64,000 nt of DNA from positions 3,136,001 through 3,200,000 of the forward strand of contig OZ219926.1 of the NCBI GenBank assembly GCA_964291405.2. Reading direction: 5' to 3'. The notes beneath the pieces are model-generated. The model was given only the letters and a program-made list of their open reading frames with translations. It searched no databases and had not been told where the DNA came from. Shown piece after piece: positions 3,311-47,900 of the stretch (within the stretch, counting starts at the first letter, position 1; every line of letters starts with the position of its first letter). Source of the stretch: Thermodesulfobacteriota bacterium. GTDB taxonomy: Bacteria > Desulfobacterota > Binatia > Bin18. The position numbers and the translations under genes are program-made.

Positions 3311-3367
3311 TGGTCCGGCCGACCCCTGGGCTGGACCGGGAATTCTTACGGGCTATTCCTCGGCGCC

Positions 3368-4036: not shown

Positions 4037-4065
4037 GAAGCACTCTTCCTTTCTCGTGCGGTAAA

Positions 4066-6387: not shown

Positions 6388-7191
6388 ATGAGCTTGGTCA
6401 ATCTGCGTATTGTTCTTGTTCGGCCGAAATACTCCGGTAATATCGGCGCGACAGCGCGGGCGATGCGGAACTGCGGGATGACTGATTTGCACCTCGTCAA
6501 TCCAGACCCGATACAGCGTAATGTGGCTGATGCGCTGGCGGTCCACGCCAAAGACGTGCTCGATACCATGCAGATACACTCTTCTCTGCGTGCGGCCGTG
6601 AGTCCCTGTGGTCTGGTTGTGGGGACCACGTGCCGGACCGGCCTGTATCGGGAAGGCGCAGGCACGCTTGAGGCGCGCGCGGCTGAGATTGTGGCCAGCC
6701 TCAAAAGCAATCGTGTTGCACTCGTTTTTGGTCCAGAAGACAGCGGCTTGAGCAATGAGGATTTACGGTGCTGCCATACCTTACTGAAAATCCCAACTGA
6801 TCCTGCGTTTGCCTCACTGAATATTGCGCAGGCCGTCTTGCTATGTTGCTATGCTGTTTTCCGTGGGACACAGCAGACAGAGGATGACAATCAGCCGGTG
6901 TTCGCGTCTTCTGAGCGACAGGAGTTGATGTACGAAAAGCTCAAAGCCGCGCTCTTGCAGGTTGGCTTTCTGCCCCAGGATAACCCTGAGCATATCATGC
7001 TCGCCCTCCGTCGTCTGTTTGGCCGAGCCGGACTGGAAGACCGCGACGTCCGCATTCTTCTTGGTATTGCCCATCAAATTGAGTGGTATGCCCAAGGAGG
7101 ATGGCAGCGCCGGGAGCAGGTCGAGCAGAGGTCGTCGCCGTACCGTACGGCAAAACACGATGCGCAAAAAGTGAGCGAAGATCGTGGCTGA
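6388..7191 (+). CDS. trmJ: tRNA (cytidine/uridine-2'-O)-methyltransferase TrmJ/LasT (SPOUT)
   Basis: Motifs GNIGATARAMRNCG, VFGPEDSGLSNEDL and SLNIAQAV. Confidence 0.9.
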   Translation: MSLVNLRIVLVRPKYSGNIGATARAMRNCGMTDLHLVNPDPIQRNVADALAVHAKDVLDTMQIHSSLRAAVSPCGLVVGTTCRTGLYREGAGTLEARAAEIVASLKSNRVALVFGPEDSGLSNEDLRCCHTLLKIPTDPAFASLNIAQAVLLCCYAVFRGTQQTEDDNQPVFASSERQELMYEKLKAALLQVGFLPQDNPEHIMLALRRLFGRAGLEDRDVRILLGIAHQIEWYAQGGWQRREQVEQRSSPYRTAKHDAQKVSEDRG

Positions 7192-7396
7192 GATCATTTA
7201 TTTGCGGAAAATCATCCAGGCTCGCCGTCGTGAGCAGCAACAAGAGTGTGCCGCTCGGTGTGTGGAGATTGTGGAAAGGAGTCTGCGACATCACATCGAG
7301 GAGTTTGCGCACGCCCCACCCCAAGAGTGGGCGGTTCGCGCCACCAAGATTCGTAAACTCGGAGAAATATTGGAGTATTCAACACATATCGTCTAG
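7184..7396 (+). CDS. Small hypothetical protein
   Basis: 70-aa helical ORF (MAEIIYL) overlapping the trmJ stop. Confidence 0.6.
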   Translation: MAEIIYLRKIIQARRREQQQECAARCVEIVERSLRHHIEEFAHAPPQEWAVRATKIRKLGEILEYSTHIV

Positions 7397-7459
7397 ACGA
7401 TATTCCTCTGTTTTCTTTGGGGTTGCCTCTTGGTGTGTGAACGAGAGGAAAGGAACGGT

Positions 7460-8050
7460 ATGGCAAAAGCAGCTTCACAATCGACAAGCAAGACAGCGGC
7501 AAAAAAGACCACTAGCGCGACAAAAAAGACCGGTCGTACGCGGAAAAGTCCGGCCAAGAAAACCGCCGTCGCAAATGAGTCGGCGGTCCATGCCGCGATT
7601 CTGACACTACAGCAACGGCTCGAAACCTTAGAGGGAAATCTCTCGCAAGGCTTGACCGCCCTCGTGGCTGAGATCAAGGAACTCCGTTCTGCCGCTCCGG
7701 TCGATCCGCCTCAATCCGGCTTGACTGAAGAAACGGTCGGAGCCCTCCTGCAAGAGACATTACGGAAGCATATCGAGGAGCAGATAGAGCCCGTGACGAC
7801 CACGCTCCGCCGCATTGAGGAGCGGGTTGGTTTTATCGGGAACCGTTTGAAATCGTCAGGCGGAGGGGGGAGGAATAAGTCGGGGCGCCGGGAGCAGTCT
7901 CCGAATACGCGCGCTAAGGGTCCGAATACGCCCCGCCCGGGCCAGAGCCCGGGACAGAATTGGGCACCTCCATCTGCCGCGTCGGTCCAAGGACATTTTA
8001 CGCCGCGTCCAATGAGCCTGGACCACTTGGCTCGAGAAGACGACGAATAG
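7460..8050 (+). CDS. Hypothetical protein with Lys/Ala/Thr-rich N-terminus and coiled coil
   Basis: ATG after GAAAGGA. AAKKTTSATKK..PAKK basic tail, then heptad-like segments. Confidence 0.7.
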   Translation: MAKAASQSTSKTAAKKTTSATKKTGRTRKSPAKKTAVANESAVHAAILTLQQRLETLEGNLSQGLTALVAEIKELRSAAPVDPPQSGLTEETVGALLQETLRKHIEEQIEPVTTTLRRIEERVGFIGNRLKSSGGGGRNKSGRREQSPNTRAKGPNTPRPGQSPGQNWAPPSAASVQGHFTPRPMSLDHLAREDDE

Positions 8051-8083
8051 GACTTAGGGCTGGCTATGACGAAGACCGGAGTG

Positions 8084-8557
8084 CTAGTCAACCGCGTGTG
8101 GGTCCGCTCGGAGCGCAATATCGCGGAGAAAAGTGTTCAGCCGCCGTTTGTCTTTCTCTAGGGAAAGAAAGAACTGGGTGGCGTCGGGGAGGTCGGGGTC
8201 CCAGTAAATGGCCTGCTCGTTATACTGCTGGGTCAGGGTTTGGCTATCCTCAAGGTCGTGAACAACCCGGGACCAGTGGTTGTGCCCTCCTTTTGGTGAA
8301 GCCTCTTCGGCTTCACTCCACTCGCCCTCCAACTCAGCGATTTTATCTTGGATACGCTGGGTAATGCGCTCCTGCTCTTCTGCGGCGGCACGCAGTTGAT
8401 CCCGACCCGCCTGATGGGGCGCAAGCTCCGCGTGGGCGAGGATTTGCTGGGTGAGCTGTTTTTCTGCCCGACAGCTCGTCACGAGTGTTGGCACTAACTG
8501 TTGCGGATCTTTATGCTGCGGCTCCTCAGAGCCGACAAAACGTTGCCAAAAACCCAT
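8084..8557 (-). CDS. Hypothetical protein, ferritin-like four-helix bundle
   Basis: Helical ORF with paired acidic motifs (AEEQER, LEKDKRR). SD GGAGA upstream. Confidence 0.6.
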   Translation of the reverse strand: MGFWQRFVGSEEPQHKDPQQLVPTLVTSCRAEKQLTQQILAHAELAPHQAGRDQLRAAAEEQERITQRIQDKIAELEGEWSEAEEASPKGGHNHWSRVVHDLEDSQTLTQQYNEQAIYWDPDLPDATQFFLSLEKDKRRLNTFLRDIALRADPHAVD

Positions 8558-8694
8558 AGCGTTCTCCCGGACCGGAAGTACCGTGCCGGGTATGACTTGT
8601 CAAGGTCGGAAACGGTCCCGTTTCTTATCTTCCTTCTTTGCCGATGATAAGCTACTATGATACAGAATGGTGAAGCGGATAAGAAGGAATCACA

Positions 8695-8904
8695 ATGGCA
8701 CGCATCACGGTTGAAGACTGTCTGGCCCAGATCCCAAATCGATTTGAACTCGTTGTCGTTGCCGCGCACAGAGCGAAAGAACTCCTCAAGGGATCGCCGC
8801 GGCTCGTCGACTCGGATAATAAAGAAGTCGTGACTGCCCTGCGTGAAGTTGCGGCTGGCAAAGTGTGGAAGGAAAAGGCCCAAGAGGCGATTGAAGAAGC
8901 GTAG
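8695..8904 (+). CDS. rpoZ: RNA polymerase omega subunit
   Basis: [36 protein letters not shown]. Confidence 0.97.
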
Positions 8905-9058
8905 CTTGTTGCCTTTTGCTTTGTGGTATCCAGCGACCTTCCCTCCATCAGACGCGGCGTATCGGGGTACGAGCCCAGCACAGAGCCAACGTGGTTTATG
9001 AGAGACACGGGGCCGTCAGGATCGCCCCTGTTCGTTTTCGCTGTGTAATAAAGCTTTC

Positions 9059-10087
9059 ATGAAACGTGTGGCAAAAGATACAGAGCCCGTTGCCGTGCCC
9101 GTTCTGGCCGAACCCGAACGTGCAGACTCTGTGCCGGTCGAGCAGAACGGGCAGTCAGAACCGCCCATCGAAGTCAGTGCCACCACAGCCGACGAGGCTG
9201 ACAGGATGGAAACGGCGCTCATCCCCACGGATTCTCTCAGTCGTTATATGGCAGAGATCCGTCGCTATGCCCTGCTCTCGCCCGAAGAGGAGCACGAGTT
9301 GGCGGTCCAGTATAAAGAGTACGGCGATGTGCAGGCTGCCTATCGGCTCGTCACCGCAAACTTACGCTTAGTGGTCATGATTGCCCGGAGTTACCAGCGG
9401 GCGTTTCAGAATTTGCTCGACTTAATCCAGGAGGGGAATGTCGGCCTCATGGATGCGGTTCGGCATTTTGACCCGTACCGGGGCGTCCGGTTTCCCTCCT
9501 ATGCGGTCTGGTGGGTGCGAGCGTATATCATTCGCTACATTATGAACAATTGGCGTATGGTGAAGCTTGGCACGACCCAGGCCCAGCGAAAACTCTTCTT
9601 TAATCTGCAAAAGGAAAAGGAACGGCTCGAAGCCGAGGGCTATTCCCCCGAGCCAAAACGGCTCGCCCACAACCTGGGAGTGAAAGAACGTGAGGTCGTG
9701 GAGATGGAGCAGCGTATGGCAGCCCGCGACCTCTCGGTTGATGCGCCGCTTGACGCGGGGGACGAGTCTGCCACGTTTCTTGACTTCCTGGCCGATCAGA
9801 GCGCGAACGCGGAGGAAGCGGTCTCGACGCTCGAATACCAGCAGTTGATCCGTCGTAAGCTGATGGACTTTGCCCAGACCCTGGAAGGCAAAGAGGAAGT
9901 GATATTCAATCAACGTCTCTTCGCCGAAGAGCCCCTGACGCTTCAGGACATTGGCGATCAGTACGGCATCAGTCGTGAGCGGGTGCGCCAACTCGAAAGC
10001 CGGCTCAAGAAAAAATTAAAGGAATACTTAGTCCGTGAGATTCCGGACCTGACGGACCTCGATATTGGCCTAGCTGACGCAGGGTAA
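9059..10087 (+). CDS. rpoH: RNA polymerase sigma-32-like factor
   Basis: Region 2 DLIQEGNVGLM, RpoH box QRKLFFNLQKEK and region 4 ISRERVRQLE. Confidence 0.85.
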   Translation: MKRVAKDTEPVAVPVLAEPERADSVPVEQNGQSEPPIEVSATTADEADRMETALIPTDSLSRYMAEIRRYALLSPEEEHELAVQYKEYGDVQAAYRLVTANLRLVVMIARSYQRAFQNLLDLIQEGNVGLMDAVRHFDPYRGVRFPSYAVWWVRAYIIRYIMNNWRMVKLGTTQAQRKLFFNLQKEKERLEAEGYSPEPKRLAHNLGVKEREVVEMEQRMAARDLSVDAPLDAGDESATFLDFLADQSANAEEAVSTLEYQQLIRRKLMDFAQTLEGKEEVIFNQRLFAEEPLTLQDIGDQYGISRERVRQLESRLKKKLKEYLVREIPDLTDLDIGLADAG

Positions 10088-10137
10088 TCTTTTCCTTCAT
10101 ATTGCCACCGAGCGGAGAATCGGTTTATAGTGTGACT

Positions 10138-10875
10138 GTGCATGAACTGGATGCGGGTATCGTCGTCATTGGCAACGAAATACTGTCCGGCAAGACGGTC
10201 GATACCAATTCGCCCTTCCTGGCAAAGGAACTCCGAGAGATTGGAGTGACCCTGAAGCGGGTCGTCGTGATCCCTGACGAACTCGACATCATTACCGAGA
10301 CGGTGCGTGATTTTCACCGCCAGTTCGATATTGTCTTTACCTCAGGCGGTGTCGGCCCAACGCATGACGACATTACCATCGAAGGGGTCGCGCACGCCTT
10401 GGAGCGAAAGGTTATCCGCCATCCCGTGCTAGAGGAAAAGTTACGCTCCTATCTCAACGGCCGGCCGGCAAATAGCGCCTATCTCAAGATGGCGGAAGCG
10501 CCTGAAGGGGCTGAGTTGATTGAGGATGGCGCGGTCCGTTTCCCGACGATCAAAGTGGAAAATGTGTATGTCCTGCCCGGTATCCCGGATATTTTTCGGC
10601 AGAAATTCCTGGCGTTCAAGAGTCGTTTTGCCGCAGACCCCTATTATCTCAAGGTGCTCTACACGCGCGAATATGAGAGCGTGATTGCTGGTTTCCTGAA
10701 TGAAACATTACGTGTGTATCCGGAGGTGATGCTCGGGTCGTATCCGAAGAATAACGATCCTGAGTACCGGGTCAAAATCACCCTTGAGTCAAAAGATAAA
10801 CATTACGTCGATCGGGCTTTTCAACATTTGATCACGTTGCTCCCTGAGGGGTGTGTGGTGAAAACAGAGGGGTGA
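10138..10875 (+). CDS. CinA N-terminal-like molybdopterin-binding protein (COG1058)
   Basis: Motifs IGNEILSG..DTNS, SGGVGPTHDDIT and LPGIP. No C-terminal PncC domain. Confidence 0.85.
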   Translation: MHELDAGIVVIGNEILSGKTVDTNSPFLAKELREIGVTLKRVVVIPDELDIITETVRDFHRQFDIVFTSGGVGPTHDDITIEGVAHALERKVIRHPVLEEKLRSYLNGRPANSAYLKMAEAPEGAELIEDGAVRFPTIKVENVYVLPGIPDIFRQKFLAFKSRFAADPYYLKVLYTREYESVIAGFLNETLRVYPEVMLGSYPKNNDPEYRVKITLESKDKHYVDRAFQHLITLLPEGCVVKTEG

Positions 10876-10885
10876 GGAGGATGTC

Positions 10886-11260
10886 ATGGGAAAAACGTTA
10901 TCGGTTTCATTGTGCGGCTGTGTGCTGGGGCTAGTGTTGTCTGCTCCGCCGCCCGCGTCGGCCAACCCCGACTATCTCGAAGACGCCGGACTTGGAACGG
11001 CGACCGTCGCGGCCAATGTGTTTTACATTCCGGCCAAGCTGACGTACGCCACCCTAGGTGGTATTACCGGCGGTCTGGCCTATGTGCTGACCGGGACCAA
11101 CCGCGAGATTGCCGAACGGGTGTGGAAGCCGTCCATGGGCGGAGACTATATTGTGAAGCGGCGGCATATTCAGGGAGAGGAAACCCTCTACTTCAGCGCG
11201 CCTCTCCCCCGGACGGATGACAGGGCTCTCAACGCGGAACCGCTCCCGCCAGCCTACTAA
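10886..11260 (+). CDS. Hypothetical secreted or membrane protein
   Basis: SD GAGGAGG, signal peptide ending ASA, hydrophobic segment. Confidence 0.7.
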   Translation: MGKTLSVSLCGCVLGLVLSAPPPASANPDYLEDAGLGTATVAANVFYIPAKLTYATLGGITGGLAYVLTGTNREIAERVWKPSMGGDYIVKRRHIQGEETLYFSAPLPRTDDRALNAEPLPPAY

Positions 11261-11280
11261 CCCGTCCCGAGGAATAGCGC

Positions 11281-11892
11281 ATGAGCAGGCTGCGACTAGG
11301 TCTTTCCATCTGCGTGCTCGTGCTGCTTGGCCTGGGCGTCTGGGCCGGTCTCTCTTTCCAGCGGATGCGGACTGCAGCGCTGCAATGGGAGGGGCCGGTC
11401 GCCGAAATCCTGAGTGAACGGCTCGACAAGCGCGCCGATACCATGACGATGGAGTTCACCTCCCGGCTCGACGCCCCGCTGGCCGATATCTGGCAGGCGT
11501 TCTCCGAGCCGGAACGGAGCGCGGAGTTCAGCGAGACCATCCGTGTGTCTCGTCTCCTTCAAGCCCAGGGCAACCGGAAGCTCATCCTCTTTGAGATGGT
11601 CATGCTCGGCCAGCCACAGCGGCTGAGTATGCAGTTCACCTTTCTGCCCGGAGAAAACCGGGTCCGTATCCGGAGCGTCGAAAGCCAAATGAGCGACATT
11701 CAGGGCGAATACCGCTTTACGTCTTCACCGGACGGAACCAAAACCCTGCTGACCTATACCGGTACGCTGAAAGACAAGGTCAGCCTGCCGGTCCCTCTGG
11801 CCCTGCAAAAGAACGCCGCGCGTGAAAGTTTCGTCTCCACCGTGCGTGCTTTGAAAAAGGGTGTGGAGAGTCAGAATACAGCAGGCTCATAG
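11281..11892 (+). CDS. SRPBCC/START-like protein with N-terminal membrane anchor
   Basis: TM helix followed by an IWQAFSEPE / GEYRFTSSPDGTKTLLTY cyclase-like pattern. Confidence 0.7.
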   Translation: MSRLRLGLSICVLVLLGLGVWAGLSFQRMRTAALQWEGPVAEILSERLDKRADTMTMEFTSRLDAPLADIWQAFSEPERSAEFSETIRVSRLLQAQGNRKLILFEMVMLGQPQRLSMQFTFLPGENRVRIRSVESQMSDIQGEYRFTSSPDGTKTLLTYTGTLKDKVSLPVPLALQKNAARESFVSTVRALKKGVESQNTAGS

Positions 11893-11942
11893 CCCGGCCA
11901 GCAGCCGGGTCAGGGTGACTGCGGAGGGACTGGATCATATAT

Positions 11943-12458
11943 CTATGTATCCTCCGGTTGCGCCTGTTCTGAGGAGGGGATCGTGGCAAAAACCTCTTCC
12001 TTATGTTCCCGGAGGAACTGCGCGACATCTTTTGAAGCGCGGAGCAGAATTTCAATATGGGCGACGTCCGCACTCGATACGCTGGCCAGCGTGTGGTGAT
12101 AGGCGCCCAGGGCGGCTATGAGGTCGGTCTGCCGGTCCGGGATCACTTCAAATTTCTCCGTTAGACAGGCGTTAATGCGTTCTGCCAACGCGTCGAAGGT
12201 CTCCTGCTCGACGCCTTCGGTCGTCCCTGAGATCAACTCCTGCCAGAGCATCTCTATGGCATACCGGGCGGGGTGCTCGCGCCGCAGGCCGGCGCTGAGC
12301 TGGTAGAGCTGATTGGCGAGGGGCTGCCAGCGCGCGGGACGTTTGTGGGAGACTAAGGCGTTGGCCTTCAGCAGACGGGCGTGCAAGGCGCTGAGACCGT
12401 ACTGTTCGGTTAAGAGCTGAATCAGCGTATCAAACTCACGTGACGTGACGTGTGCCAT
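11943..12458 (-). CDS. Hypothetical protein
   Basis: ATG at 12458 after AAAGGA. Helical ORF with no known motif. Confidence 0.65.
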   Translation of the reverse strand: MAHVTSREFDTLIQLLTEQYGLSALHARLLKANALVSHKRPARWQPLANQLYQLSAGLRREHPARYAIEMLWQELISGTTEGVEQETFDALAERINACLTEKFEVIPDRQTDLIAALGAYHHTLASVSSADVAHIEILLRASKDVAQFLREHKEEVFATIPSSEQAQPEDT

Positions 12459-12668
12459 GGTATTCCTTTCTGACGATATCCGGGCTCGGTTGGGTGACTC
12501 GTATGCCAGTAATCGCGCGATCATGACAAAAACCCGTGCCGCTCGCAATGCGCTCGTTTTCTTGCCCCTCGTTCAGACTTGGTCTAAAGAAGAAGAGGCT
12601 GTGGTTGGAAACTGCTGCGGGAGCGGTCACAGACCGGAGACCCTTCGAGAAAAAAGAGAGGGAACAGG

Positions 12669-13388
12669 ATGCCGACAGACCACGAAAAAATTCTTGAAAT
12701 TATCCGCCTCAAAGACAAGGCTCCACTTGCCTTGGCGCGGGACAAAACCGCCCTGCTGGTGATTGATATGCAGCGCTATTTTGTCAGCCCCCATTACCCG
12801 CTGATGCAAACCTTTGAGAAATTGGTCCCTGGGGTGAGCGCCGCCTACTGCGAGCGGGTCAATGCGTCCGTCATTCCCAATATCAATCGTTTGCTGGGCT
12901 GCTTTCGGACCAAGCAGATGCCGGTTATGTACACCGCCATTGGCACCTGCCTTAAGGATGGGCAGGATTTGAACCCCATGTGGAAGGCGCTCGATCAACT
13001 CAGCCTGGATACGATAGGCGAGCGCATGTTCCCTGCGGTTGACGAGCCGAGCTGGCAGATTGACGACAGCGTTGCGCCGCAACCGGGTGAGCTGGTTGTG
13101 AACAAAACATCGAGCGGCACCCTGAACTCTACCATGCTCGACCAGACGCTCCGCAATATGGGGATTACCTCGCTCCTGATCTGCGGGGTGACAACGGATG
13201 TATGTGTCGAAACCACGGCCCGGGACGCGGCCGACCGGGGCTTTGACGTCACCATTGTCGAGGATGCCTGCACGGCCTTCAGTTCGGACCTGCACCGGGC
13301 GGCTCTCCAGGCGTTCAGCTATGCATTCGGCCGGGTCCGCAAAACGCACGAGTTGATTCATATCGTGAACACCGCAGAGGCCGTGTGA
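12669..13388 (+). CDS. Isochorismatase-like cysteine hydrolase
   Basis: Motifs ALLVIDMQRYF, VVNK and GVTTDVCVETTARDAADRGF. Confidence 0.92.
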   Translation: MPTDHEKILEIIRLKDKAPLALARDKTALLVIDMQRYFVSPHYPLMQTFEKLVPGVSAAYCERVNASVIPNINRLLGCFRTKQMPVMYTAIGTCLKDGQDLNPMWKALDQLSLDTIGERMFPAVDEPSWQIDDSVAPQPGELVVNKTSSGTLNSTMLDQTLRNMGITSLLICGVTTDVCVETTARDAADRGFDVTIVEDACTAFSSDLHRAALQAFSYAFGRVRKTHELIHIVNTAEAV

Positions 13389-13398
13389 AAGAAAAAAA

Positions 13399-14598
13399 AT
13401 GAAAGCCCTGGTCTTTGCCAAGACGGCCCAGAAAGACGCGCCTCCGGCCCCGGAGTTTTTGCCCGGTCTGGCCAATCTCCAGTTATGCGACGTGCCCACC
13501 CCCGACCTGCCCAATGAACGCTGGGTGGTGGTCAAAAGTAAAATTTCCGGCATCTGCGGCAGCGACCTGGGCTTTTTGCAGTGGAAGCCTATGCCCGCGG
13601 CCGAGCCGTATTTCGAGCTGCCCCTGATTCCCGGCCACGAACTGTTCGGCGAGGTGGCCGCGGTGGGCAAGCGCGTGCGCGGGCTCCGGGTCGGCCAACG
13701 GGTGACCGTCGATCCCACGCTCGGCTGTCGGGAACGGGGCTTTCGGAAGCTGTGCCCACAGTGTCGAAACGGAAACCCCGGGATTTGTGAACATATTGCT
13801 GAGGGACAGCTTCGTCCTGGACTATTAATCGGCATCTGTCCCGATACCGGCGGCGGCTGGGGGGAATATTTTGTTGCCCCCGCACACCGGCTGACACCCT
13901 TGCCGGATACGATAGACGATGATGAAGCCTCGCTGATCGAACCGTTTGCCGTGTGTCTTCGGGCGGTGCTTAACAATCCGCCTCGGCGCAAAGAACTGGT
14001 GATGGTGATCGGCGCTGGGACGATTGGTCTGATGAATATCGCTGCGCTCAAGGCCGTTGAGCCGTCCTGCCGGGTGGCGTGTATTGCCAAGTACCCGTTT
14101 CAGGCCAGATTGGCGCGTCGTCTTGGGGCGGATCACATTATCGATGCCCAAAAGCAGGATGTCATGGTCCAGGTTGGCGAACTGGCCCAGACCAAGGTCT
14201 ATCCACTCTCCGGCGGCGGCGCGGTCCTGGCCGGTGGGGTGCGGCTGGTCTACGATACGGTCACCAATTCGGTCACACTCAATCAGGCGCTGCGCATGGC
14301 GCGAGGCCAGGGAGCCGTTATTGTGCTCGGTTTGGCCGCGCTGCCCGAAGGCGTTGACTGGACGCCGACCTGGATGAAAGAGATTGCTATCGTTGGGAGT
14401 CTGACGTATGGGGCCGAGACGTTTCGGGGCAAACGTCAGGATACGTTTGTGCGCGCGGTCGAACTCTTGAGACGCCGACGCGCAGACTTGCGCGCGATCC
14501 GCCCGCGCAAGTATCCGCTTGAGCAGTTCCGCCAAGCCCTGACCGAAGCCGCCAGCAAGAAAACCTCGGGGGCGGTCAAGGTCTCGTTTGTCCCCTGA
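13399..14598 (+). CDS. Zinc-dependent alcohol dehydrogenase (MDR family)
   Basis: Motifs GICGSD, PGHE, a structural Cys cluster and GAGTIG. Confidence 0.92.
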   Translation: MKALVFAKTAQKDAPPAPEFLPGLANLQLCDVPTPDLPNERWVVVKSKISGICGSDLGFLQWKPMPAAEPYFELPLIPGHELFGEVAAVGKRVRGLRVGQRVTVDPTLGCRERGFRKLCPQCRNGNPGICEHIAEGQLRPGLLIGICPDTGGGWGEYFVAPAHRLTPLPDTIDDDEASLIEPFAVCLRAVLNNPPRRKELVMVIGAGTIGLMNIAALKAVEPSCRVACIAKYPFQARLARRLGADHIIDAQKQDVMVQVGELAQTKVYPLSGGGAVLAGGVRLVYDTVTNSVTLNQALRMARGQGAVIVLGLAALPEGVDWTPTWMKEIAIVGSLTYGAETFRGKRQDTFVRAVELLRRRRADLRAIRPRKYPLEQFRQALTEAASKKTSGAVKVSFVP

Positions 14599-41428: not shown

Positions 41429-42946
41429 ATGGCGCTCTTGGACCGAGCCGACTGGTATGACATTGCCCGCGACACCAATTGGACGCCGCAATATGTCACT
41501 GAAGACGCGCTTTTCCCGGAAGAGCAGAGTGGGGCGCTGAGCCTGCCGCTTGAGGCGTGGGAGAGCTATGACGAGCCCTATAAAGTCACCTATCGTGAAT
41601 ATGTGCGGACCCAGCGCGAGAAGGATGCCGGGGTGTATTCGGTCAAAGCCGCGCTCCAGCGGGCCAATTTCTTGGATCAGGCCGAGCCCGGCTGGGTGAG
41701 TATTCTCAAGCTGCACTACGGCGCGTTTGCCACGCTTGAGGCCATGGCCTCGAGTGCGGAGTCCCGTATGGCCCGCTTTGGCAAGGCCGGCGGTCTGCGC
41801 AATATGGCGACCTTCGGCTCGCTGGACGAGAATCGCCACGGTCAGATTCAACTCTATTTCCCGCACGAACACGTCCACCGCAGTCGGCAGTTTGACTGGG
41901 CGACCAAGTCGATGCACACCAACGAGTGGGCGGTTGTTGCCGCCCGTCATCTGTTCGATGACATCATGGCCGGCCGCGACGCGGTTGGAGTGGCGCTGAT
42001 GCTGACCTTTGCCTTTGAGACCGGATTTTCCAATCTGCAATTTCTCGGACTGGCGGCCGATGCCGCTCAGGCCGGTGATATTTCCTTTTCCAATCTCGCC
42101 TCCAGCATTCAAACCGACGAAGCGCGCCACGCCCAGATTGGCGGTCCGGCCGTGAAAATCCTGATCGCAAACGGGAAGAAGGCCGAAGCCCAACGACTGG
42201 TTGATGTTGCCATCTGGCGGGCTTGGACCTTGTTCGCCACCGTGACCGGTCCGTCCATGGATTATTACACCCCGCTCGACCGCCGCGAGAAATCCTTCAA
42301 AGAGTTCATGCAGGAATGGGTCTTTGGCCAGTTTGAGCGGACCCTGCTCGACATCGGCCTGGAACGCCCCTGGTATTGGGACACCATGCTGGCCGACCTT
42401 GATACCCGCCACCACGGGATGCATGCGGGAATCTGGACCTTTCATAAATCAGTCTGGTGGGATGTCCCGCCCGGCATCAGCCGAGCCGAACGCGCCTGGC
42501 TGGAGGAGAAGTATCCCGGCTGGGAAGAGACCTGGGGAGCGCATTTCTGGGACCCGATCATTGTCCGTTTTCTGAAAGACGGTCCGGTCGATACGGTCCT
42601 GCCCTCTATGGTGCAGTTGTGCAATATGGCCCAAGTGCCGATCACCGGTACGCCCGGCTGGGCTCCGGGCAAGACCGGCCGGCCCTTGCAGGATTTTCCG
42701 CTTGAACACGAAGGCCGCCTGTATCATTTCGGCTCGGAGGTGGACCGCTGGATTTTTCAGCAGGACCCGGACCGCTACAAAGATCATCTGAGCGTTGCCG
42801 ACCGGATGGTGGCTGGGATGATCCAGCCGCCGACCCTCGAAGGGCTGCTCGACTATTTTTCGCTCAAAGAGGGAGAACAGGGAGAGGATGCCCTCAATCA
42901 CAGCTGGTTGGAGGAGTACCGCCAAGAGCAGGCCCAGGCCGCCTGA
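41429..42946 (+). CDS. tmoA: Toluene/benzene-type soluble diiron monooxygenase, alpha subunit
   Basis: Co-linear with T4MO TmoA as I recall it. Ligands E104, E134, H137, E197, E231 and H234 present. WESYDEPYK and YHFGSEVDRW. Confidence 0.93.
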   Translation: MALLDRADWYDIARDTNWTPQYVTEDALFPEEQSGALSLPLEAWESYDEPYKVTYREYVRTQREKDAGVYSVKAALQRANFLDQAEPGWVSILKLHYGAFATLEAMASSAESRMARFGKAGGLRNMATFGSLDENRHGQIQLYFPHEHVHRSRQFDWATKSMHTNEWAVVAARHLFDDIMAGRDAVGVALMLTFAFETGFSNLQFLGLAADAAQAGDISFSNLASSIQTDEARHAQIGGPAVKILIANGKKAEAQRLVDVAIWRAWTLFATVTGPSMDYYTPLDRREKSFKEFMQEWVFGQFERTLLDIGLERPWYWDTMLADLDTRHHGMHAGIWTFHKSVWWDVPPGISRAERAWLEEKYPGWEETWGAHFWDPIIVRFLKDGPVDTVLPSMVQLCNMAQVPITGTPGWAPGKTGRPLQDFPLEHEGRLYHFGSEVDRWIFQQDPDRYKDHLSVADRMVAGMIQPPTLEGLLDYFSLKEGEQGEDALNHSWLEEYRQEQAQAA

Positions 42947-42954
42947 GGGTCCGT

Positions 42955-43242
42955 ATGGCACAGATTCCCATTGTCCATAATCTGCATCAGGAGTTTGTCC
43001 TGTACGTCTCTATCGTCGATACCGAGAACACGATGGATGAAGTGTGTCAGACGGCCGCCCAACTGAGCATCGGCTTCGAGAAGAACCAGAAGCCGGACGC
43101 GCCGCTGCGGGTGCGGAAAGTCGGAGCTGAGAAACCGTTTCCGCGCGATATGACGGTTGCGGAGGCCGGCATCACCCCAATGACGAGCCTCGAACTCTTT
43201 TATGAAGCCGCCGAGGCTGCTTCGCCCGAGCCTACACCATGA
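42955..43242 (+). CDS. tmoB: Monooxygenase gamma subunit (TmoB-like)
   Basis: DTENTMDEV and PFPRDMTVAEAGI, ubiquitin-like. Position after the alpha subunit. Confidence 0.8.
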   Translation: MAQIPIVHNLHQEFVLYVSIVDTENTMDEVCQTAAQLSIGFEKNQKPDAPLRVRKVGAEKPFPRDMTVAEAGITPMTSLELFYEAAEAASPEPTP

Positions 43243-44231
43243 GCGCCAAATCCGAACCGCTCAAGCCGCTACGGACCTGGAGTCATCTCACAGGTAGACG
43301 CCGTCGCCCGAGCGAATATGAGATTGTCTCGACCAATCTCATGTACGACGCCAAGAATGCGGAGTCTCCGTTTGAGCTGGGGCCGAATATCCCGCTCTCC
43401 AAGTGGTTCAAAAAATACCGCCACGCCTCTCCCCTCACCGGTCGGGACTGGGAGGAATTCCGTGACCCTGACGAGCTTACCTATCGTGCCTACAATACCC
43501 TGCAAGACGGCCAAGAGACCTATATCGAAGGGCTGTTCGACCAGCACAACGAACTCCAGTACGATACCGGCCTCGCTGCCGCCTGGGTTGCTGTCCTGCC
43601 GCGCTTGTACACCCCGGCCCGCTATGCGTTCCACACCGTGCAGATGGCTTCGCACTATCTCGTCCAGATTGTGCCGTCGAGTACGATTCGGAACTGCGCG
43701 ACCTATCAGGCCGCGGATGCCCTGCGCTGCGTATCCCATCTTGCGTATCGGACCGCCGAGCTGAAACAGACTTATCCGGATAGCGGATTTGGGACGGCTG
43801 AGCGCGCTGCCTGGGAAAATGCCGCCGCCTGGCAAGGCTTTCGTGAGTTGATGGAAAGGGTTTTGGTCGCCTATGACTGGGGCGAGAGTTTTGTCGCCCT
43901 CAATCTGGTAGCAAAGCCGGCCATTGACGAGGTGCTGCTGCGTCAACTGGCAGCCACCGGCCGTCGGCAGGGCGACAGTTTGCTCGGCCTGATTGCCGAT
44001 TCCGAATATCGTGATGTCCAGCGCTCCAGAACCTGGAGTACCGCCCTGGTCCGCTTCGCGGGTGAACGGCCAGAAAACCTGACGGTGATACGCGGCTGGG
44101 TGGAGCAGTGGCTCCCTCTGGCTGAACGGGCCATCGACGCATACTGCCAGGATTTGCCCGACAGCCCGCAGGCCGCAGCCACGGCTACCCAGGCCGTGCA
44201 CGGGTTTTTACAAGCTCTCGACTTACACTGA
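43239..44231 (+). CDS. tmoE: Monooxygenase beta subunit (TmoE-like)
   Basis: Motifs LKPLRTWSHL..RRRPSEYEIVS, FRDPD..YRAY..QDGQE and DWGESFVALNLVAKP. Confidence 0.92.
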   Translation: MSAKSEPLKPLRTWSHLTGRRRRPSEYEIVSTNLMYDAKNAESPFELGPNIPLSKWFKKYRHASPLTGRDWEEFRDPDELTYRAYNTLQDGQETYIEGLFDQHNELQYDTGLAAAWVAVLPRLYTPARYAFHTVQMASHYLVQIVPSSTIRNCATYQAADALRCVSHLAYRTAELKQTYPDSGFGTAERAAWENAAAWQGFRELMERVLVAYDWGESFVALNLVAKPAIDEVLLRQLAATGRRQGDSLLGLIADSEYRDVQRSRTWSTALVRFAGERPENLTVIRGWVEQWLPLAERAIDAYCQDLPDSPQAAATATQAVHGFLQALDLH

Positions 44232-44241
44232 GTTCCCCTGC

Positions 44242-44580
44242 ATGGCGTTTACCCGAGTCTGTAGCCTCGACGATGTATGGGAGGGCGATATGGCCGCGTA
44301 TGAGGTTGACGGGCAACCCATCGTCTTAGTCTATCCCATAGATGGTGAGATTATCGCCATTCAGGGGTTTTGTCCGCATCAGCAGTTTTCTTTAGCCGAG
44401 GGTGATTTCGACGGCCACAAGGTGCTCACATGCAGCGCCCATGTGTGGCAATTCGACGTCACGACGGGCAGTGGGGTCAATCCCCAAGACTGCGAACTGG
44501 TCCGCTATCCCGTCAAAATCGAGCATGACGAAATCTATGTAGACACTGTTGGCATAGAGCCAAAGCGTGTCGGGGTGTAG
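44242..44580 (+). CDS. tmoC: Rieske ferredoxin (TmoC-like)
   Basis: CPHQ..CSAHVWQFD Rieske ligands, and LDDVWEG. Confidence 0.92.
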   Translation: MAFTRVCSLDDVWEGDMAAYEVDGQPIVLVYPIDGEIIAIQGFCPHQQFSLAEGDFDGHKVLTCSAHVWQFDVTTGSGVNPQDCELVRYPVKIEHDEIYVDTVGIEPKRVGV

Positions 44581-44582
44581 CT

Positions 44583-44882
44583 ATGGACAAACAGACAAGC
44601 AACAACAAAGTCGGCCCGGTGCTCCGTGCCGGGGATATCGCGGATGCGGCAATTGACGCGATCTACGAAGACAATCCGGACAAAGAGGTGCGGGTCGAAA
44701 ACCACCACGCTTACGTTCGGGTCGAGACCGATACCGAGTGTATTATCAGGCGCGAGACCATGGAGGCCAACCTCGGCCGGCCGTTCCATATGCAGGAACT
44801 GGAGACCGTCCTGAGTTCTTTTGCCGGACAGATCGAAACCAGCGCTCACTATATGCGCTTCTACTTGACAAAGAATCTCTAG
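44583..44882 (+). CDS. tmoD: Monooxygenase effector protein (TmoD/MmoB family)
   Basis: NKVGPVLR, DNPDKEV..AYVRV and LSSFAGQI. Confidence 0.92.
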   Translation: MDKQTSNNKVGPVLRAGDIADAAIDAIYEDNPDKEVRVENHHAYVRVETDTECIIRRETMEANLGRPFHMQELETVLSSFAGQIETSAHYMRFYLTKNL

Positions 44883-45141
44883 GGAGAGTTCGGTATTTAC
44901 GTATGTCGCCTGTTGTTGAAGAATCGTTTGCCGCTCACCTGCTCAAGACTAATCGCTAGCACCTGTAGCGGAAGATAGAGAAATATCAGATCGATAGTGG
45001 AGACTGATCCTCTATTAGCCTGTGACCCACCGCACGAATCTGAGAGAATCCATAGACAAGAAGGGACAGGGGCGTCTTGGTCGCTGGTTATTCACAAACC
45101 ATGGCCTTGCCGTACTCTCTCCTCTGGATACTATGGGAGAC

Positions 45142-45390
45142 ATGAAAACGACGCTTGATATCCACGACGAACTTCTGGCACGGGCGAAACGCCACGCCAA
45201 GAAGACGGGCCGCCCCTTGCGTGCCGTGGTTGAGGACGGGCTCCGTCAGGTGCTTGCTGCGTCTCCCTCTCAGGACCGCTACCGGCTGCCCGATTTGAGT
45301 ACCGGCCATGCCGGCGCGGAGGACCCTCTTGAGGTCTATTCGTGGCAGGACCTGCGCGGGTTGATCTACGGAGAGACTGAAACACGATGA
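45142..45390 (+). CDS. VapB-like (RHH) antitoxin
   Basis: MKTTLDIHDELLARAK..LRAVVEDGLR, with ATGA overlap to a PIN remnant. Confidence 0.8.
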   Translation: MKTTLDIHDELLARAKRHAKKTGRPLRAVVEDGLRQVLAASPSQDRYRLPDLSTGHAGAEDPLEVYSWQDLRGLIYGETETR

Positions 45391-45431
45391 TTGCGGTCGA
45401 TACGAACCTGCTCGTCTATGCCCACCACTGA
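45387..45431 (+). pseudogene. VapC/PIN toxin remnant (first 14 codons only)
   Basis: MIAVDTNLLVYAHH*, the classic PIN N-terminal motif, then a stop. Confidence 0.75.
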
Positions 45432-45446
45432 ACAGAGGAGAAAATC

Positions 45447-45650
45447 ATGAAATTAAAGGTAGTCGTCCATGAAGCGGAGGAAGGTGGTTATTGGGCAGAG
45501 GTGCCCGCCATCCCCGGATGCGCGACGCAGGGAGAATCTTTTGAAGAACTGCTGAGCAATCTCTACGAAGCGATTGAAGGGTGTCTGTCCGTGGATGTCC
45601 AGGAGATTCCCACGTCGGACAAAGGCAAGATCATCGAAATCGCGGTATGA
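45447..45650 (+). CDS. hicB: HicB-family antitoxin (short form)
   Basis: EEGGYWAEVPAIPGCATQGES..EAI. Confidence 0.9.
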   Translation: MKLKVVVHEAEEGGYWAEVPAIPGCATQGESFEELLSNLYEAIEGCLSVDVQEIPTSDKGKIIEIAV

Positions 45651-45852
45651 AGATCGTCAGTGGGAAGCGGTTCTGCCAAGTGTTAGAATCGCGAGGGTGG
45701 CAGTTAATGCGCGTCCGCGGTAGCCACCATATCTATGCCAAAGGGCTACCCCCGTTCGTATTTCGGTTCCGGTTCACGGTGGCACCCCTCTCAAACGTGG
45801 CCTACAGAGACATCTCATGAAGTTGGCGGATATTGAGGAATCGGAACTGTAG
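45647..45852 (+). pseudogene. hicA: HicA toxin, frameshifted near 45745
   Basis: GWQLMRVRGSHHIY, then PVRISVPVHG..LKRGLQRHLMK in a shifted frame. The span is 206 nt, not a multiple of 3. Confidence 0.8.
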
Positions 45853-46017
45853 GCGCCGAGGAAAAGATTGACTTCGATGGCTCAATCTCGGAGTAAGGAG
45901 GCTGCTAAGACCGTCGAAACGCTCACGGGCCACGACGCGTTGCATAAGAACATCCTCACAGTAGAGTTTCAGTCCATGATGTGGAAGAACGCGTTTTGCA
46001 GGAGAAGATTCAAGCCA

Positions 46018-46209
46018 GCCTATTTCCTCGGAGCCAACGACCCCTACAAAGCCCTCAAGACCACCCTCAAGGCCGAGATCAACGCAGACGCCTGGACAAC
46101 CCTCAACAGCGACACCTCCCGCCCGTTCGACAAACCCACGTCCGGCCGGATTGCGGTCAAGGTCATCAACCATCTAGGGGATGAGGTGATGAAGGTGTTT
46201 CGGGTGTGA
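46018..46209 (+). pseudogene. 3'-terminal fragment of a type III-like site-specific DNA methyltransferase (mod) gene
   Basis: AYFLGANDPYKALKTTLKAEI..SRPFDKP.SGRIAVKVINHLGDEVMKVFRV*, recognised from memory as the C-terminus of this family. Confidence 0.75.
46109..46209 (+). repeat. 101-bp direct repeat, copy 1
   Basis: Matches 46899-46999 with 5 mismatches. Confidence 0.95.
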
Positions 46210-46255
46210 CAATACCTTCTTGACAATCGTGCAAAAACGTACGACGTAGCGACTG

Positions 46256-46462
46256 GTGAAGAGTAATGAATTTGTCAGGCGGGCCAAGCGCTATGCAAGA
46301 AGAGTTGGGCTGGTAGCCTCCTTCAATCCAAGCCGTGGCAAGGGCAGTCACGGACGGCTTCACATCGGAGACCGCTTCACTACCGTGCCACGCAAGGAAA
46401 TCGGTCCAGGTCTGTTGGCCGCAATGTTGAACGATCTGAATATCGACAAGAAGGAGTTCTGA
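46256..46462 (+). CDS. hicA: HicA-family toxin
   Basis: RGKGSHG..TTVP..EIGPGLLAAMLNDL. Its stop overlaps the hicB ATG. Confidence 0.85.
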   Translation: MKSNEFVRRAKRYARRVGLVASFNPSRGKGSHGRLHIGDRFTTVPRKEIGPGLLAAMLNDLNIDKKEF

Positions 46463-46890
46463 TGCGATACGCTTATCCTTGTGTCTTGACGCCCGAAGAA
46501 GGCGGGGGATTTTTCGTGCGTTTCCCCGATGTGCCGGGAGCGCTGACCTGTGGCGAGGACCGGGCCGAGGCGTTGCTGATGGCCGAGGATGCCCTCGCTG
46601 TCGCCCTCGCCGGCTATGTGCAGCAGCAACGGGACATTCCCGCCCCAAGCTCTGCTAAAAAAGGCCAGGAAATTGTGACCCTGTCACCCCTTGTCGCCGC
46701 GAAGCTCGCGCTGTACACGGCAATGCGTCAGCAGGGCGTGACCAAGGTGGCCCTGGCGGCTCGTTTGGGCCTGAGCGAGGCAGTTGTGCGCCGACTTGTG
46801 AATCTCGATCACCGCTCCCACATCAGTCAGGTCGAAAAAGCCCTCCGCGCCGTAGGACGCAAACTCGCGGTCGAGGATCAGGCGGCATAA
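46462..46890 (+). CDS. hicB: HicB antitoxin with C-terminal HTH
   Basis: FFVRFPDVPGALTCGE..AEDAL..IPAPS, then the HTH TKVALAARLG. Confidence 0.9.
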   Translation: MRYAYPCVLTPEEGGGFFVRFPDVPGALTCGEDRAEALLMAEDALAVALAGYVQQQRDIPAPSSAKKGQEIVTLSPLVAAKLALYTAMRQQGVTKVALAARLGLSEAVVRRLVNLDHRSHISQVEKALRAVGRKLAVEDQAA

Positions 46891-46898
46891 GGTCTATG

Positions 46899-46999
46899 GC
46901 GACACCTTCCGCCCGTTCGACAAACCGCAGTCCGGCCGGATTGCGGTCAAGGTCATCAACCATCTTGGGGATGAGGTGATGAAGGTGTTTCGGGTGTGA
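46899..46999 (+). repeat. 101-bp direct repeat, copy 2 (second mod 3' end)
   Basis: Encodes DTFRPFDKPQSGRIAVKVINHLGDEVMKVFRV*. Confidence 0.95.
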
Positions 47000-47008
47000 G
47001 AACACTCT

Positions 47009-47833
47009 CTAGCGATTATCCCCAAACGCGGCGTCGCGCTCCTTGGCCCGCTTGGACCCGGAAAAGGTATCCTCGCCTTTCTCCAGCCGGTACATGCGGG
47101 TAAGGGCGTACGACTGAAACGCGCCGGTGACGCCGGTCCGAAAGCCGGCTTCGTCCTGCATCTGGTTCATCGAGAATTTGGCAATCCGCAACGCGTAGGC
47201 GTCCTGCAGGGCAATGCGCTGGGCGAGTTCCAGGGTCTTGGCTTCGAGCTGGTCGCGCGGCACAACCTCGTTGACCAGCCCCAGCCGCTCGGCCTCCACG
47301 GCCGTGATCCAGTCGCCGGTAAAGAGGTATTGCTTGGCCTTGCGAAAGCCAATGTCCCAGGCCAGGCTGGCGTACTGGACATGAGCGCCCGCCCAGCGCA
47401 CCGTGCGGTCACAAAACTTGGCGTCGTCCGCAGCAATAATGAGATCGCAGGCCGAGGCCAACATCAGCCCGCCCATAATGCAGTAGCCCTGGACCTGGGC
47501 AATGGTCGGTTTGGGACAATCCCGCCAGCGCAGAGTGCAATCCAGATAGAGGTCTCGTCCGCGTTTATATTCGCCCGGCATGCCCTTCGGATACGGGCGC
47601 TTTTTCCAGTCTTCCCGTTCCTGCGGCGTGCCAATGTCATGGCCGGCGGAAAAATGCTTGCCCGCACCGGCCACGATAATGACTTTGACCGACTCGTCTT
47701 CCGCGGCGGCGGCCATGGCCCGATCAAACTCTTCCAGCATCAAGCGGCTCTGGGCATTGAGTGCCTCAGGGCGATTGACGGTGATGGTCAGGACCGCCTC
47801 ATCCTGTTTCTGGGTCAGGGTTTCATAGCTCAT
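47009..47833 (-). CDS. Enoyl-CoA hydratase/isomerase family protein
   Basis: Motifs NRPEALNA, FSAGHD and KPTIAQVQGYCIMGGLMLASACD. Confidence 0.92.
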   Translation of the reverse strand: MSYETLTQKQDEAVLTITVNRPEALNAQSRLMLEEFDRAMAAAAEDESVKVIIVAGAGKHFSAGHDIGTPQEREDWKKRPYPKGMPGEYKRGRDLYLDCTLRWRDCPKPTIAQVQGYCIMGGLMLASACDLIIAADDAKFCDRTVRWAGAHVQYASLAWDIGFRKAKQYLFTGDWITAVEAERLGLVNEVVPRDQLEAKTLELAQRIALQDAYALRIAKFSMNQMQDEAGFRTGVTGAFQSYALTRMYRLEKGEDTFSGSKRAKERDAAFGDNR

Positions 47834-47872
47834 GGCTCCCTCCTTCATTGTTCGGTTTTGTTCGTTCGGTAG

Positions 47873-47900
47873 GTAGGGGCAATTCATGAATTGCCCCTAC
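47873..47900. repeat. GTAG-type REP palindrome
   Basis: Perfect 28-bp palindrome GTAGGGGCAATTCATGAATTGCCCCTAC. Confidence 0.75.

Follow-up and report, generated by a model that had tools for sequence, protein, structure and literature searches.

Integron cassettes are small promoterless or self-contained units that line up in one orientation behind a fixed point, and toxin-antitoxin (TA) pairs are common among them. Integrative elements, e.g., the streptococcal cis-mobilizable elements, undergo tandem accretion at the 3' ends of genes, with att repeats between the units, and arrays of partial gene ends are typical of such accretion at att sites. A further type of event, insertion with long target duplication, was reportedly described by Nobusato et al. 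in 2000 (Gene 259:99). According to the part of the paper by Furuta et al. considered here (2010, NAR 38:2428, PMC2853133), such insertions have direct repeats of more than 30 bp, an insert of less than 20 kb and no mobility genes, the repeats often span a start or stop codon and the target gene is left intact; the cause is left open in that part, with double-strand breakage suggested. Defense systems can also be embedded within other defense operons, with Hma, BREX, DISARM, and Type I restriction-modification (R-M) systems as hosts (Payne, Hughes, Fineran and Jackson 2024, bioRxiv 10.1101/2024.01.29.577857). The main text of that preprint does not contain the word "recombination" and does not describe insertion scars, and how defense and TA genes become embedded in defense operons is an open question that it does not address. 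Here, we describe a locus in a 64,000-nucleotide stretch of a Thermodesulfobacteriota genome (contig OZ219926.1, positions 3,136,001 to 3,200,000; hereafter the window), in which a hicAB TA module is enclosed by two copies of the 3' end of a Type III-like DNA methyltransferase gene (mod).

A preliminary description of this DNA had reported a 101-bp direct repeat with five mismatches and a 790-bp spacing, enclosing one hicA-hicB module and ending in both copies at a stop codon, and we could reproduce all these points. The two copies (Table 1) were identical at 96 of 101 positions. A repeat search extended the pair slightly (46109-46220 and 46899-47010; 112 nt, 92% identity, spacing 790), and a 32-nt core was found in two exact copies in the 64-kb window, compared to none in 100 shuffled sequences. 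The left edge of the similarity was abrupt, at GCGACACCT, and the right edge faded within approximately 10 nt past the TGA, with both copies terminating on the stop codon of the Type III-like Mod tail. Copy 2 ended 10 nt short of the stop codon of a convergent enoyl-CoA hydratase gene. The insert between the copies is 689 bp long, contains hicAB as its sole content and has no mobility gene; the window holds a single cargo unit, not an array. Of the two gene products, HicB scored above and HicA below the Pfam cut-off.

With direct repeats of more than 30 bp, an insert far below 20 kb and no mobility genes, the window fits the structural description of insertion with long target duplication. In common with the cases in the considered part of Furuta et al., it has a short unit flanked by repeats that copy the target across its stop codon and leave a complete gene end, and it is tied to an R-M locus; one of the targets listed there was a Type III M gene. 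There are also differences from what is presented there. Those inserts consisted of R-M genes, and a unit with both R and M genes is not what we found: the insert here is a TA pair, while at other loci (see below) Dsr2, a PD-T4-4-like system, and IetA with PDC-M41 genes take this place. For those cases, a sister genome with an empty site provided the proof, whereas the class is assigned here from the repeat structure. Finally, unlike in those cases, one gene end has here been struck repeatedly in unrelated lineages. With moderate confidence, we interpret the repeat as a recombination scar, formed when hicAB was placed directly past the mod stop codon, with duplication of the last 101 bp of mod and retention of a complete 3' end.

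To compare the repeat with the same gene end in other genomes, loci were collected using a degenerate pattern for the peptide INHLGDEVMKVF, with one genome per species. This gave at least 122 stretches, 80 of which had flanks of up to 10 kb; as two of these (L011 and L012) overlap, they represent 79 distinct, fully examined places, with 41 short loci in addition. The last 101 nt of the tail could be compared for 119 loci (7,021 pairs), including some without an intact mod. Between loci, the median identity was 74% and the 99th percentile 85%. Only one of the 7,021 pairs reached 95% (L010 and L037, both Vicinamibacterales), followed by L114 and L115 with 94%. The two copies in the window were 95% identical to each other, and the best match elsewhere for either copy was 87%, which argues that they represent one sequence or very close alleles and not unrelated donors. 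They differ by TCC/TTC (S/F), CCC/CCG (synonymous), ACG/CAG (T/Q, 2 nt), and CTA/CTT (synonymous); the preliminary description had given all of these except CCC/CCG, and had explained them by two alleles. The three adjacent differences (CCC ACG versus CCG CAG) swap DKPTSG, found in 2 of the 119 loci, for DKPQSG, found in 3 (with the same codons in L082). Both the T and the Q state thus occur naturally in the tails of other loci, and by its sequence the swap looks more like an allelic difference than like random decay.

Copy 1 is part of a 113-amino-acid open reading frame (ORF), a head-to-tail fusion that the preliminary description had overlooked together with a broken hicBA pair and a VapB-like gene just upstream. 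In BLASTP against a 938-amino-acid PF01555 methyltransferase used as reference (P0002), residues 4-41 of the ORF aligned to residues 1-38 (63% identity) and residues 51-113 to residues 876-938 (62/63, 98%); approximately 840 internal Mod residues, including the catalytic domain, are gone. The PADLOC profile MTase_III (PDLC03632) matched the ORF with an E value of 6e-36 through the tail only (profile positions 919-983 of 983), and this profile check, together with the match to P0002, upheld the earlier proposal that the tail is a Type III-like Mod C terminus. Pfam and NCBIfam returned no usable match for the 113-amino-acid ORF or for the 35-amino-acid tail. Neither the N6_N4_Mtase catalytic domain nor the target-recognition region is present, and we judge the ORF to be a Mod remnant and not a working member of the family. 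A search for longer homologues gave at least 8,000 matches. All of the 120 matches listed were 905-1,134 amino acids long and carried PF01555, the last 63 residues of the ORF at 45868-46209 were 90-98% identical to their C termini, and the named sources among them were Aromatoleum, Sedimenticola, Pirellulaceae, Phycisphaerales, and Zixiibacteriota. The full-length Mod proteins P0002, P0006, P0007, P0010, P0011, P0015, and P0018, whose tails are 97-98% identical to this one, are encoded on contigs of 4.6-5.2 Mb, and one of these contigs also encodes a UvrB with at least 90% identity to that of the window.

The state of preservation differed between the two ends of this ORF. With a reference set of 44 full-length Mod proteins taken from the collected loci, 37 of which entered the head alignment, and counting columns that were at least 90% conserved, we found that the Mod head of the ORF mismatched at 5 of 13 conserved columns, compared to a mean of 0.46 and a maximum of 3 for the other sequences. 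The tail of copy 1 mismatched at 0 of 41 columns, 12 of which were fixed by the search pattern, and the translation of copy 2 at 1 of 26. The head (45868-46030) is far more decayed than the tail to which it is joined (46018-46209), and the two parts are apparently of different ages. The tails could have arisen later than the head, or something could have kept them fresh; younger tails are compatible both with the scar interpretation and with a mobile cassette (see below), and do not decide between them.

The gene from which the tail derives belongs to a recurrent operon. On annotated plasmids, the order was a BPTD_3080-family restriction endonuclease (res), a site-specific DNA-methyltransferase (mod), and a protein annotated as "3'-5' exonuclease" or UvrD-helicase (UvrD-like helicase/exonuclease, hereafter exo), sometimes with small genes between them. 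Using tblastn with res, mod, and exo, the same gene order was found nearly everywhere among the fetched loci, and a res start was found in 48 loci other than the window. Both the end of mod and the start of exo were present at 43 loci, and the distance between these was at most 120 nt in 8 and 596-7,671 nt in 35, and the res-mod gap was likewise variable, from 16 nt to more than 5 kb. Of 70 ORFs from 33 filled mod-exo gaps, 36 were assigned by Pfam (E ≤ 1e-5) and 34 were not. The assigned families comprised SIR2 with HerA, seven AAA_15/AAA_21 ABC ATPases, Peptidase_M78 with DUF4411, and MNT with HepT, as well as PIN, RiboL-PSP HEPN, GmrSD, Mrr, Zeta toxin, Fic, AbiJ, KAP NTPase, and others, with only one transposase. 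Nearly all cargo ORFs in these 33 gaps were on the operon strand. The variable TA and defense content indicates that both the res-mod and the mod-exo gap are cargo slots. The 34 unassigned ORFs are candidate unknown defense genes by "guilt by embedding," and a host operon with two cargo slots is a rich source for this approach.

These relatives resemble the embedded systems of Payne et al. in that the cargo lies in the same orientation between host genes and in that ABC ATPases, GmrSD-like proteins, and TA-like pairs are common. Embedding between intact host genes is seen in the relatives, with 35 of 43 gaps filled, and not in the window, where the operon has decayed. The host systems named in the considered part of the Payne et al. 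preprint do not include the combination of a BPTD_3080-type res with MTase_III and a UvrD-like helicase/exonuclease. Hma was considered as the host system and rejected, as PADLOC gave MTase_III for mod, GajB/UvrD-like for the third gene, and nothing for res. No paper mentioning "BPTD_3080" was retrieved from full-text literature, and titles and abstract openings (covering neither subscription journals nor supplements) contained no duplicated methylase tails around embedded cargo. Relative to the literature examined, which includes the two papers above in part, the host operon, the TA and defense inserts in place of R-M genes, and the recurrent use of a single gene end, with one case being an array of two units, are new.

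That the mod tail would recur in tandem behind intact mod genes, with TA or defense cargo between the copies, was a prediction of the preliminary description. Extra same-strand tail fragments were indeed found at 3 of the 79 fully examined places (L011, L030, and L082), and a pair of mod ends (L114/L115) among the short loci; yet a tail repeat was absent from all 35 loci with a filled mod-exo gap. L011 (Nitrospirales) has res, small genes, mod (7160-10045), and Dsr2 (10051-13854; PADLOC E value, 1.9e-179), followed by an 80-nt tail fragment, a PD-T4-4-like ATPase with a 175-amino-acid partner, a 49-nt tail fragment, and a convergent gene. The 80-nt and 49-nt fragments were 96% and 90% identical, respectively, to the tail of the mod gene at the same locus. 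A repeat in the res-mod gap of L011 (4575-4734 and 6067-6226) was set aside as non-coding, locus-specific, and not a gene end. L030 (Spirochaetia) has a repeat with a 2,762-bp period that comprises the last 54 nt of mod and approximately 950 nt of the next, IetA-type gene; its first unit contains PDC-M41 genes, and part of the second IetA copy has been deleted. In L082 (Entotheonella), a 70-nt fragment (84% identity) without the last 8 codons lies 375 nt past mod, and a truncated ORF and a 77-amino-acid ORF, the latter without a Pfam match, lie between them. In L114/L115, a single Latescibacterota chromosome carries two mod 3' ends on the same strand (OZ242214.1, 6,905,923-6,911,638), 5,081 bp apart and 98% identical over all of the at least 346 nt compared, with divergence right past the stop codon; 6 of their 7 differences fall inside the variable patch RPF-x-(K/R)-P-x-S-G. 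A further arrangement was seen in L010, where two inverted mod tails (9991-10313 and 13268-13590; 323 nt, 93%) surround a DDE transposase gene. This locus also has a serine-recombinase-like ORF nearby and represents an insertion-sequence-linked rearrangement of the same gene end.

The three fully examined places with extra tail fragments all lack exo, and the absence of the repeat from all 35 filled gaps implies that a tail duplicate is not a regular product of cargo gain. In the plasmid collection, 20 records had the tail, each in one copy; in two of them no mod coding sequence was annotated under the match (probably unlisted pseudogenes), and there was no tail-only copy. The tail had no match in Escherichia coli genomes (blastn, distant mode) or phages (tblastn). 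When hicA, hicB, the upstream hicB/hicA, and the island DNA were compared to all fetched loci, only the VapB-like gene matched (in L069), and no hicAB was found beside another tail among these loci.

The scar interpretation can be set out as a series of steps. The source mod would have come from a res (BPTD_3080-type)-mod-UvrD-like helicase/exonuclease operon, and a piece comprising the end of mod and hicAB from a closely related operon would have paired with the resident tail. A single crossover by ordinary homologous recombination would then have set the cargo behind an intact tail and displaced the resident tail fragment past the cargo, beside the old flank, with no dedicated recombinase or DNA site involved and with both copies descending from one allele or from alleles that are very close relatives. 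We infer this single-crossover route from what it would account for: the repeat would end at the stop codon because donor and recipient are no longer homologous past the start of the cargo, the terminal fragment would abut the chromosomal flank, as in the window, L011, and L082, and a crossover between close relatives would leave copies that are near-identical and still carry different allele states. The operon then decayed, to judge from what is left of it, with loss of res and the helicase gene, reduction of mod to the 113-amino-acid fusion, and a frameshift in the upstream hicA, and hicAB plausibly stayed intact since loss of a TA pair is selected against. Tail fragments would recur at this position because the junction is permissive and often serves as a cargo slot and because, beside an active restriction enzyme, only events that preserve mod survive. 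Such mod-preserving selection would by itself enrich stop-spanning duplications, and similar structures would result from break repair with target duplication or from tandem duplication (L030 and L005).

Several points weigh against this interpretation. In which direction the event ran and where each copy came from are things that we infer, and close relatives would usually exchange DNA by a double crossover, which leaves no duplication. A single crossover needs a circular or "ends-in" substrate, which is hypothetical here. L030 and the joint of exo head and mod tail in L005 fit tandem duplication equally well, and with at least 346 nt shared by L114 and L115, larger second copies exist. A single complex mutation, in place of an allelic difference, could account for the change from CCC ACG to CCG CAG. 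Finally, one internal deletion of one gene does not predict the gap in decay between the Mod head and tail.

Whether the tail acts as a dedicated site was judged from several types of evidence. In a survey of direct repeats at gene boundaries, duplications were found for the mod tail at 3 of 73 loci (in addition to the window), the exo head at 2 of 45, the mod head at 1 of 50 (29 nt), and the res tail at 1 of 29, the last being a non-coding, locus-specific repeat. One exo-head case is L037, in which a 170-nt copy of the exo start is followed by a 160-amino-acid ORF and then by a frameshifted exo; the helicase/exonuclease of this locus (2794-5111) is present as two overlapping ORFs in place of one gene for approximately 690 amino acids. 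In L005, approximately 210 nt of the exo head are fused to the last 21 mod codons, and an AAA_16 gene and a second exo head follow. As duplications of the exo start occur at a similar rate, the mod tail is not special, and the earlier idea that it is a particular anchor for recombination is not supported. The left ends of the tail fragments lie at different distances from the mod end, approximately 100 nt in the window and L082, 82 and 51 nt in L011, 66 nt at the L005 joint, and 54 nt in L030, and five of the six fragments retain the last 48 nt of mod. Among the five repeats observed, divergence between copies was greatest where the flanked cargo had decayed. Between genomes, the tails were 49% identical at third codon positions versus 87% at positions 1 and 2. 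Free drift at the third position indicates a constraint on the protein and not on a DNA site, and pairing would be restricted to close kin, so that the tail is not a portable site. Folding of the tail DNA was no better than that of shuffled sequences (z of -0.3 to -2.0), with different structures for the window and L011, and an attC-like or hairpin site was rejected on this ground.

Compared to integrons, we found no IntI with attI (among the window ORFs of at least 110 amino acids that were scanned), no attC-like site in the fold test, and no conserved DNA, and there is one unit in the window and at most two elsewhere; "integron-like arrays," the term used in the preliminary description, therefore overstates the case. 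The resemblance to tandemly accreted elements is closer in that partial 3'-end copies separate cargo units and the first copy keeps the gene intact. Those elements need a site-specific recombinase and a fixed core, and neither a core shared by all repeats nor a cognate recombinase was found here. In our judgment there is no dedicated site, and the repeat is a recombination scar at a permissive operon junction.

The foremost alternative makes the tail itself a reused anchor: circles of "cargo + tail" would excise and re-enter related tails by a Campbell-type single crossover, and arrays would grow without an integrase. L011, with three tails and two defense systems and with the nearer fragment closer in sequence to mod (96% versus 90%), looks like stepwise accretion of this kind. 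The two natural allele states of the window copies on an otherwise near-identical synonymous background, the joint between the exo start and the tail in L005, which resembles that of a closed circle or a tandem duplication, and the many metagenomic ORFs that join unrelated sequence to only the last 57-80 Mod residues would also be accommodated. Nevertheless, we consider this model unlikely. None of the 35 filled mod-exo gaps has the tail repeat that it would leave, no cargo type is found with a tail in two loci, and hicAB is present in no other locus. Fragment lengths differ, with one fragment lacking the 3' end, exo heads are duplicated as frequently as tails, and synonymous drift would restrict pairing to close kin. 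Moreover, it is not obvious how a 790-bp circle that does not replicate would pass between cells, and all 20 plasmid records are single-tailed. The "Campbell-style" entry of the preliminary description is one possible route. Conceivably, the mod tail and the helicase head might act as portable homology arms, through which TA and defense cassettes move between related operons by general recombination without a recombinase of their own; we regard this as a tentative proposal of low probability, for which the L011 array, the scattered tail-only fragments in metagenomes, and the fresh tails beside a decayed head would be the footprints.

Deletion offers a different origin for the second copy, which we consider distinctly improbable. 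Tandem operons or tandem mod genes, arising e.g. from a plasmid-chromosome cointegrate or a segmental duplication, would have suffered a deletion reaching from the end of hicB into the last 101 bp of the second mod. The same-strand 3' ends of at least 346 nt at L114/L115, 5,081 bp apart, the tandem duplication in L030 (period, 2,762 bp) with its partly deleted second copy, and the presence of the operon on plasmids are in line with such a history, as are the metagenomic tail fragments fused to broken housekeeping genes, which suggest that deletions are common around the operon. However, two full same-strand mod genes were seen at none of the 79 fully examined places, and all readable second copies are short (approximately 50-100 nt), which random end-points in a 2.9-kb gene would rarely give, although long repeats may be unstable. 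The copies in the window also differ by natural allele states and not by random decay.

Rearranged forms of the gene were also seen among metagenomic ORFs. In P0121, the Mod tail is duplicated in frame, and among P0188, P0213, P0244, P0251, and P0152 it follows NuoG-like, P-type ATPase, topoisomerase I, ClpB, or Res fragments. Fusions and deletions around the res-mod-helicase operon seem to be common. Break-points in metagenomic ORFs clustered approximately 63-80 residues from the Mod C terminus, but ranking by a 63-amino-acid query and clustering at 50% bias this sample, and no conclusion was drawn on a preferred break-point.

Site-specific integration, with the last ~50 bp of mod serving as an att-like site for Xer or for a tyrosine or serine recombinase acting in trans, is very unlikely. 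The retention of the last 48 nt of mod in five of six fragments, the arrays of partial gene ends, typical of accretion at att sites, and the serine-recombinase-like ORF near the L010 tails would fit it, but no recombinase was found among the ORFs scanned in the window, around the L011 and L030 arrays, or next to L082. The variable left ends, the missing last 8 codons in L082, and the lack of conservation of the site DNA between genomes also speak against it, as does the lack of a significant or conserved hairpin. An assembly artefact, in which two strain variants were joined through their common tail, is hardly credible, as the junction between the end of hicB and tail position -101 is unique sequence that must have read coverage, the copies differ at five positions and so have not been collapsed, the contig that contains the window is 4.9 Mb long, and analogous structures are present in other, independent assemblies.

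If the repeat is the scar we take it for, partial duplications of a neighboring gene end are physical marks of the join at which cargo was inserted; such scars show that methylase-preserving events survive, and they suggest exchange between close relatives. The window itself is ordinary in this respect, a decayed R-M locus outlived by an addictive TA pair. Nothing points to a present function of the repeat, and no unit other than hicAB is intact. Homologous recombination between the 101-bp repeats could delete hicAB, and TA addiction would be expected to counter-select its loss.

The features of the islet and its flanks are collected in Table 1.

Table 1. Annotated features at the mod-tail repeat and its surroundings (window coordinates)
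Feature	Coordinates	Strand	Description
MmoB/DmpM-type effector gene	44583..44882	+	Left chromosomal flank; Pfam MmoB_DmpM, E 5.8e-28; last gene of multicomponent monooxygenase cluster
VapB-like/DUF6364-like antitoxin ORF	45022..45390	+	122 aa; Pfam VapB_antitoxin E 6.2e-4 and DUF6364 E 2.5e-4, both below cut-off
Short HicB/UPF0150-type antitoxin gene	45447..45650	+	67 aa, intact; UPF0150 29.4 bits and HicB_lk_antitox 28.3 bits, both over cut-offs
Upstream hicA	45651..45845	+	Frameshifted pseudogene; Pfam HicA_toxin profile positions 1-28 only
mod remnant	45868..46209	+	113-aa ORF, internally deleted remnant of a ~940-aa Type III-like Mod gene
Repeat copy 1	46109..46209	+	Last 33 codons and stop of mod remnant; inside 113-aa ORF
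hicA	46256..46462	+	68 aa, open, complete; Pfam HicA_toxin, below cut-off
hicB	46462..46890	+	142 aa; HicB-like N-terminal domain, weak C-terminal helix-turn-helix match
Repeat copy 2	46899..46999	+	Orphan tail fragment, outside any ORF of at least 30 aa
Enoyl-CoA hydratase gene	47009..47887	-	Right chromosomal flank; NCBIfam NF006140 290 bits, Pfam ECH_1

The genes at 46256-46890 are a predicted HicAB pair, in which toxicity of HicA and its neutralization by HicB are likewise predicted. HicA is of typical size and matched HicA_toxin (PF07927) with an E value of 9.9e-5 and 22.8 bits (cut-off, 27) over profile positions 13-58. HicB matched HicB_lk_antitox (PF15919) with an E value of 2.2e-9 and 37.9 bits, over the cut-off, and HTH_3 with 17.7 bits, under the cut-off; its exact sequence represents an 8-member cluster at 90% identity. 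The genes are co-oriented and overlap at the single base 46462. The TTGACA reported earlier upstream of hicA is present (46221-46226), but no sigma-70-like hexamer pair that would support a role as a promoter was found in a scan of 44800-47200.

The approximately 2-kb islet at 45022-46999 is bordered by the MmoB/DmpM gene on the left and by the convergent enoyl-CoA hydratase gene on the right, and from its gene remnants we read it as what is left of a res-mod-helicase/exonuclease operon and of the TA cargo embedded in it. As previously indicated for full mod and res genes, integrases, and transposases, tblastn of the window with res (two proteins), exo, and mod detected no res, exo, or further mod, and the window ORFs of at least 110 amino acids included no integrase or transposase (51 ORFs searched at E 1e-30; 33 at E 1e-8, of which 15 were unmatched). 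The segment at 45022-45845 is probably left-over cargo of the former res-mod gap. A 67%-identical homologue of the VapB-like ORF lies in the res-mod gap of L069 (13600-13857; VapB_antitoxin, 26.8 bits, above cut-off), which fits an assignment of this segment as res-mod cargo and of hicAB to the slot behind mod. L069 (Latescibacterota) has a 29-nt direct repeat at 12792-12820, just upstream of the mod start, and again at 13852-13880, at one end of the VapB-like gene.

In the window, the VapB-like ORF has no adjacent toxin gene. The exact sequence of the 67-amino-acid HicB/UPF0150 protein is present on 13 contigs. In the upstream hicA, frame 45653 encodes the N-terminal half as far as the GSHH motif, and frame 45652 encodes the C-terminal half (VPVHGG... 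to the stop). The order hicB-hicA of this upstream pair is the reverse of that between the repeat copies, and relatives may carry hicBA ahead of an intact mod. On the left, a monooxygenase cluster of the toluene/phenol type (41429-44882) ends where the islet begins; it comprises two Phenol_Hydrox subunits, TmoB, and MmoB/DmpM, with one unscanned ORF that presumably encodes a Rieske ferredoxin. No reductase gene was seen after the cluster, the rest of the window not having been searched for one.

Repeats around the whole operon were also observed in other genomes. Direct repeats flank the entire res-mod operon in L060 (2915-3016 and 17616-17717; 102 nt, 93%) and L006 (7846-7999 and 16149-16304; 157 nt, 90%), and these could represent either a long target duplication or att sites for the whole operon. 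In L026 (6907-15533), where res follows mod in an unusual order, a repeat of approximately 40 nt is present in at least 6 copies around the operon, including one directly past the mod stop codon.

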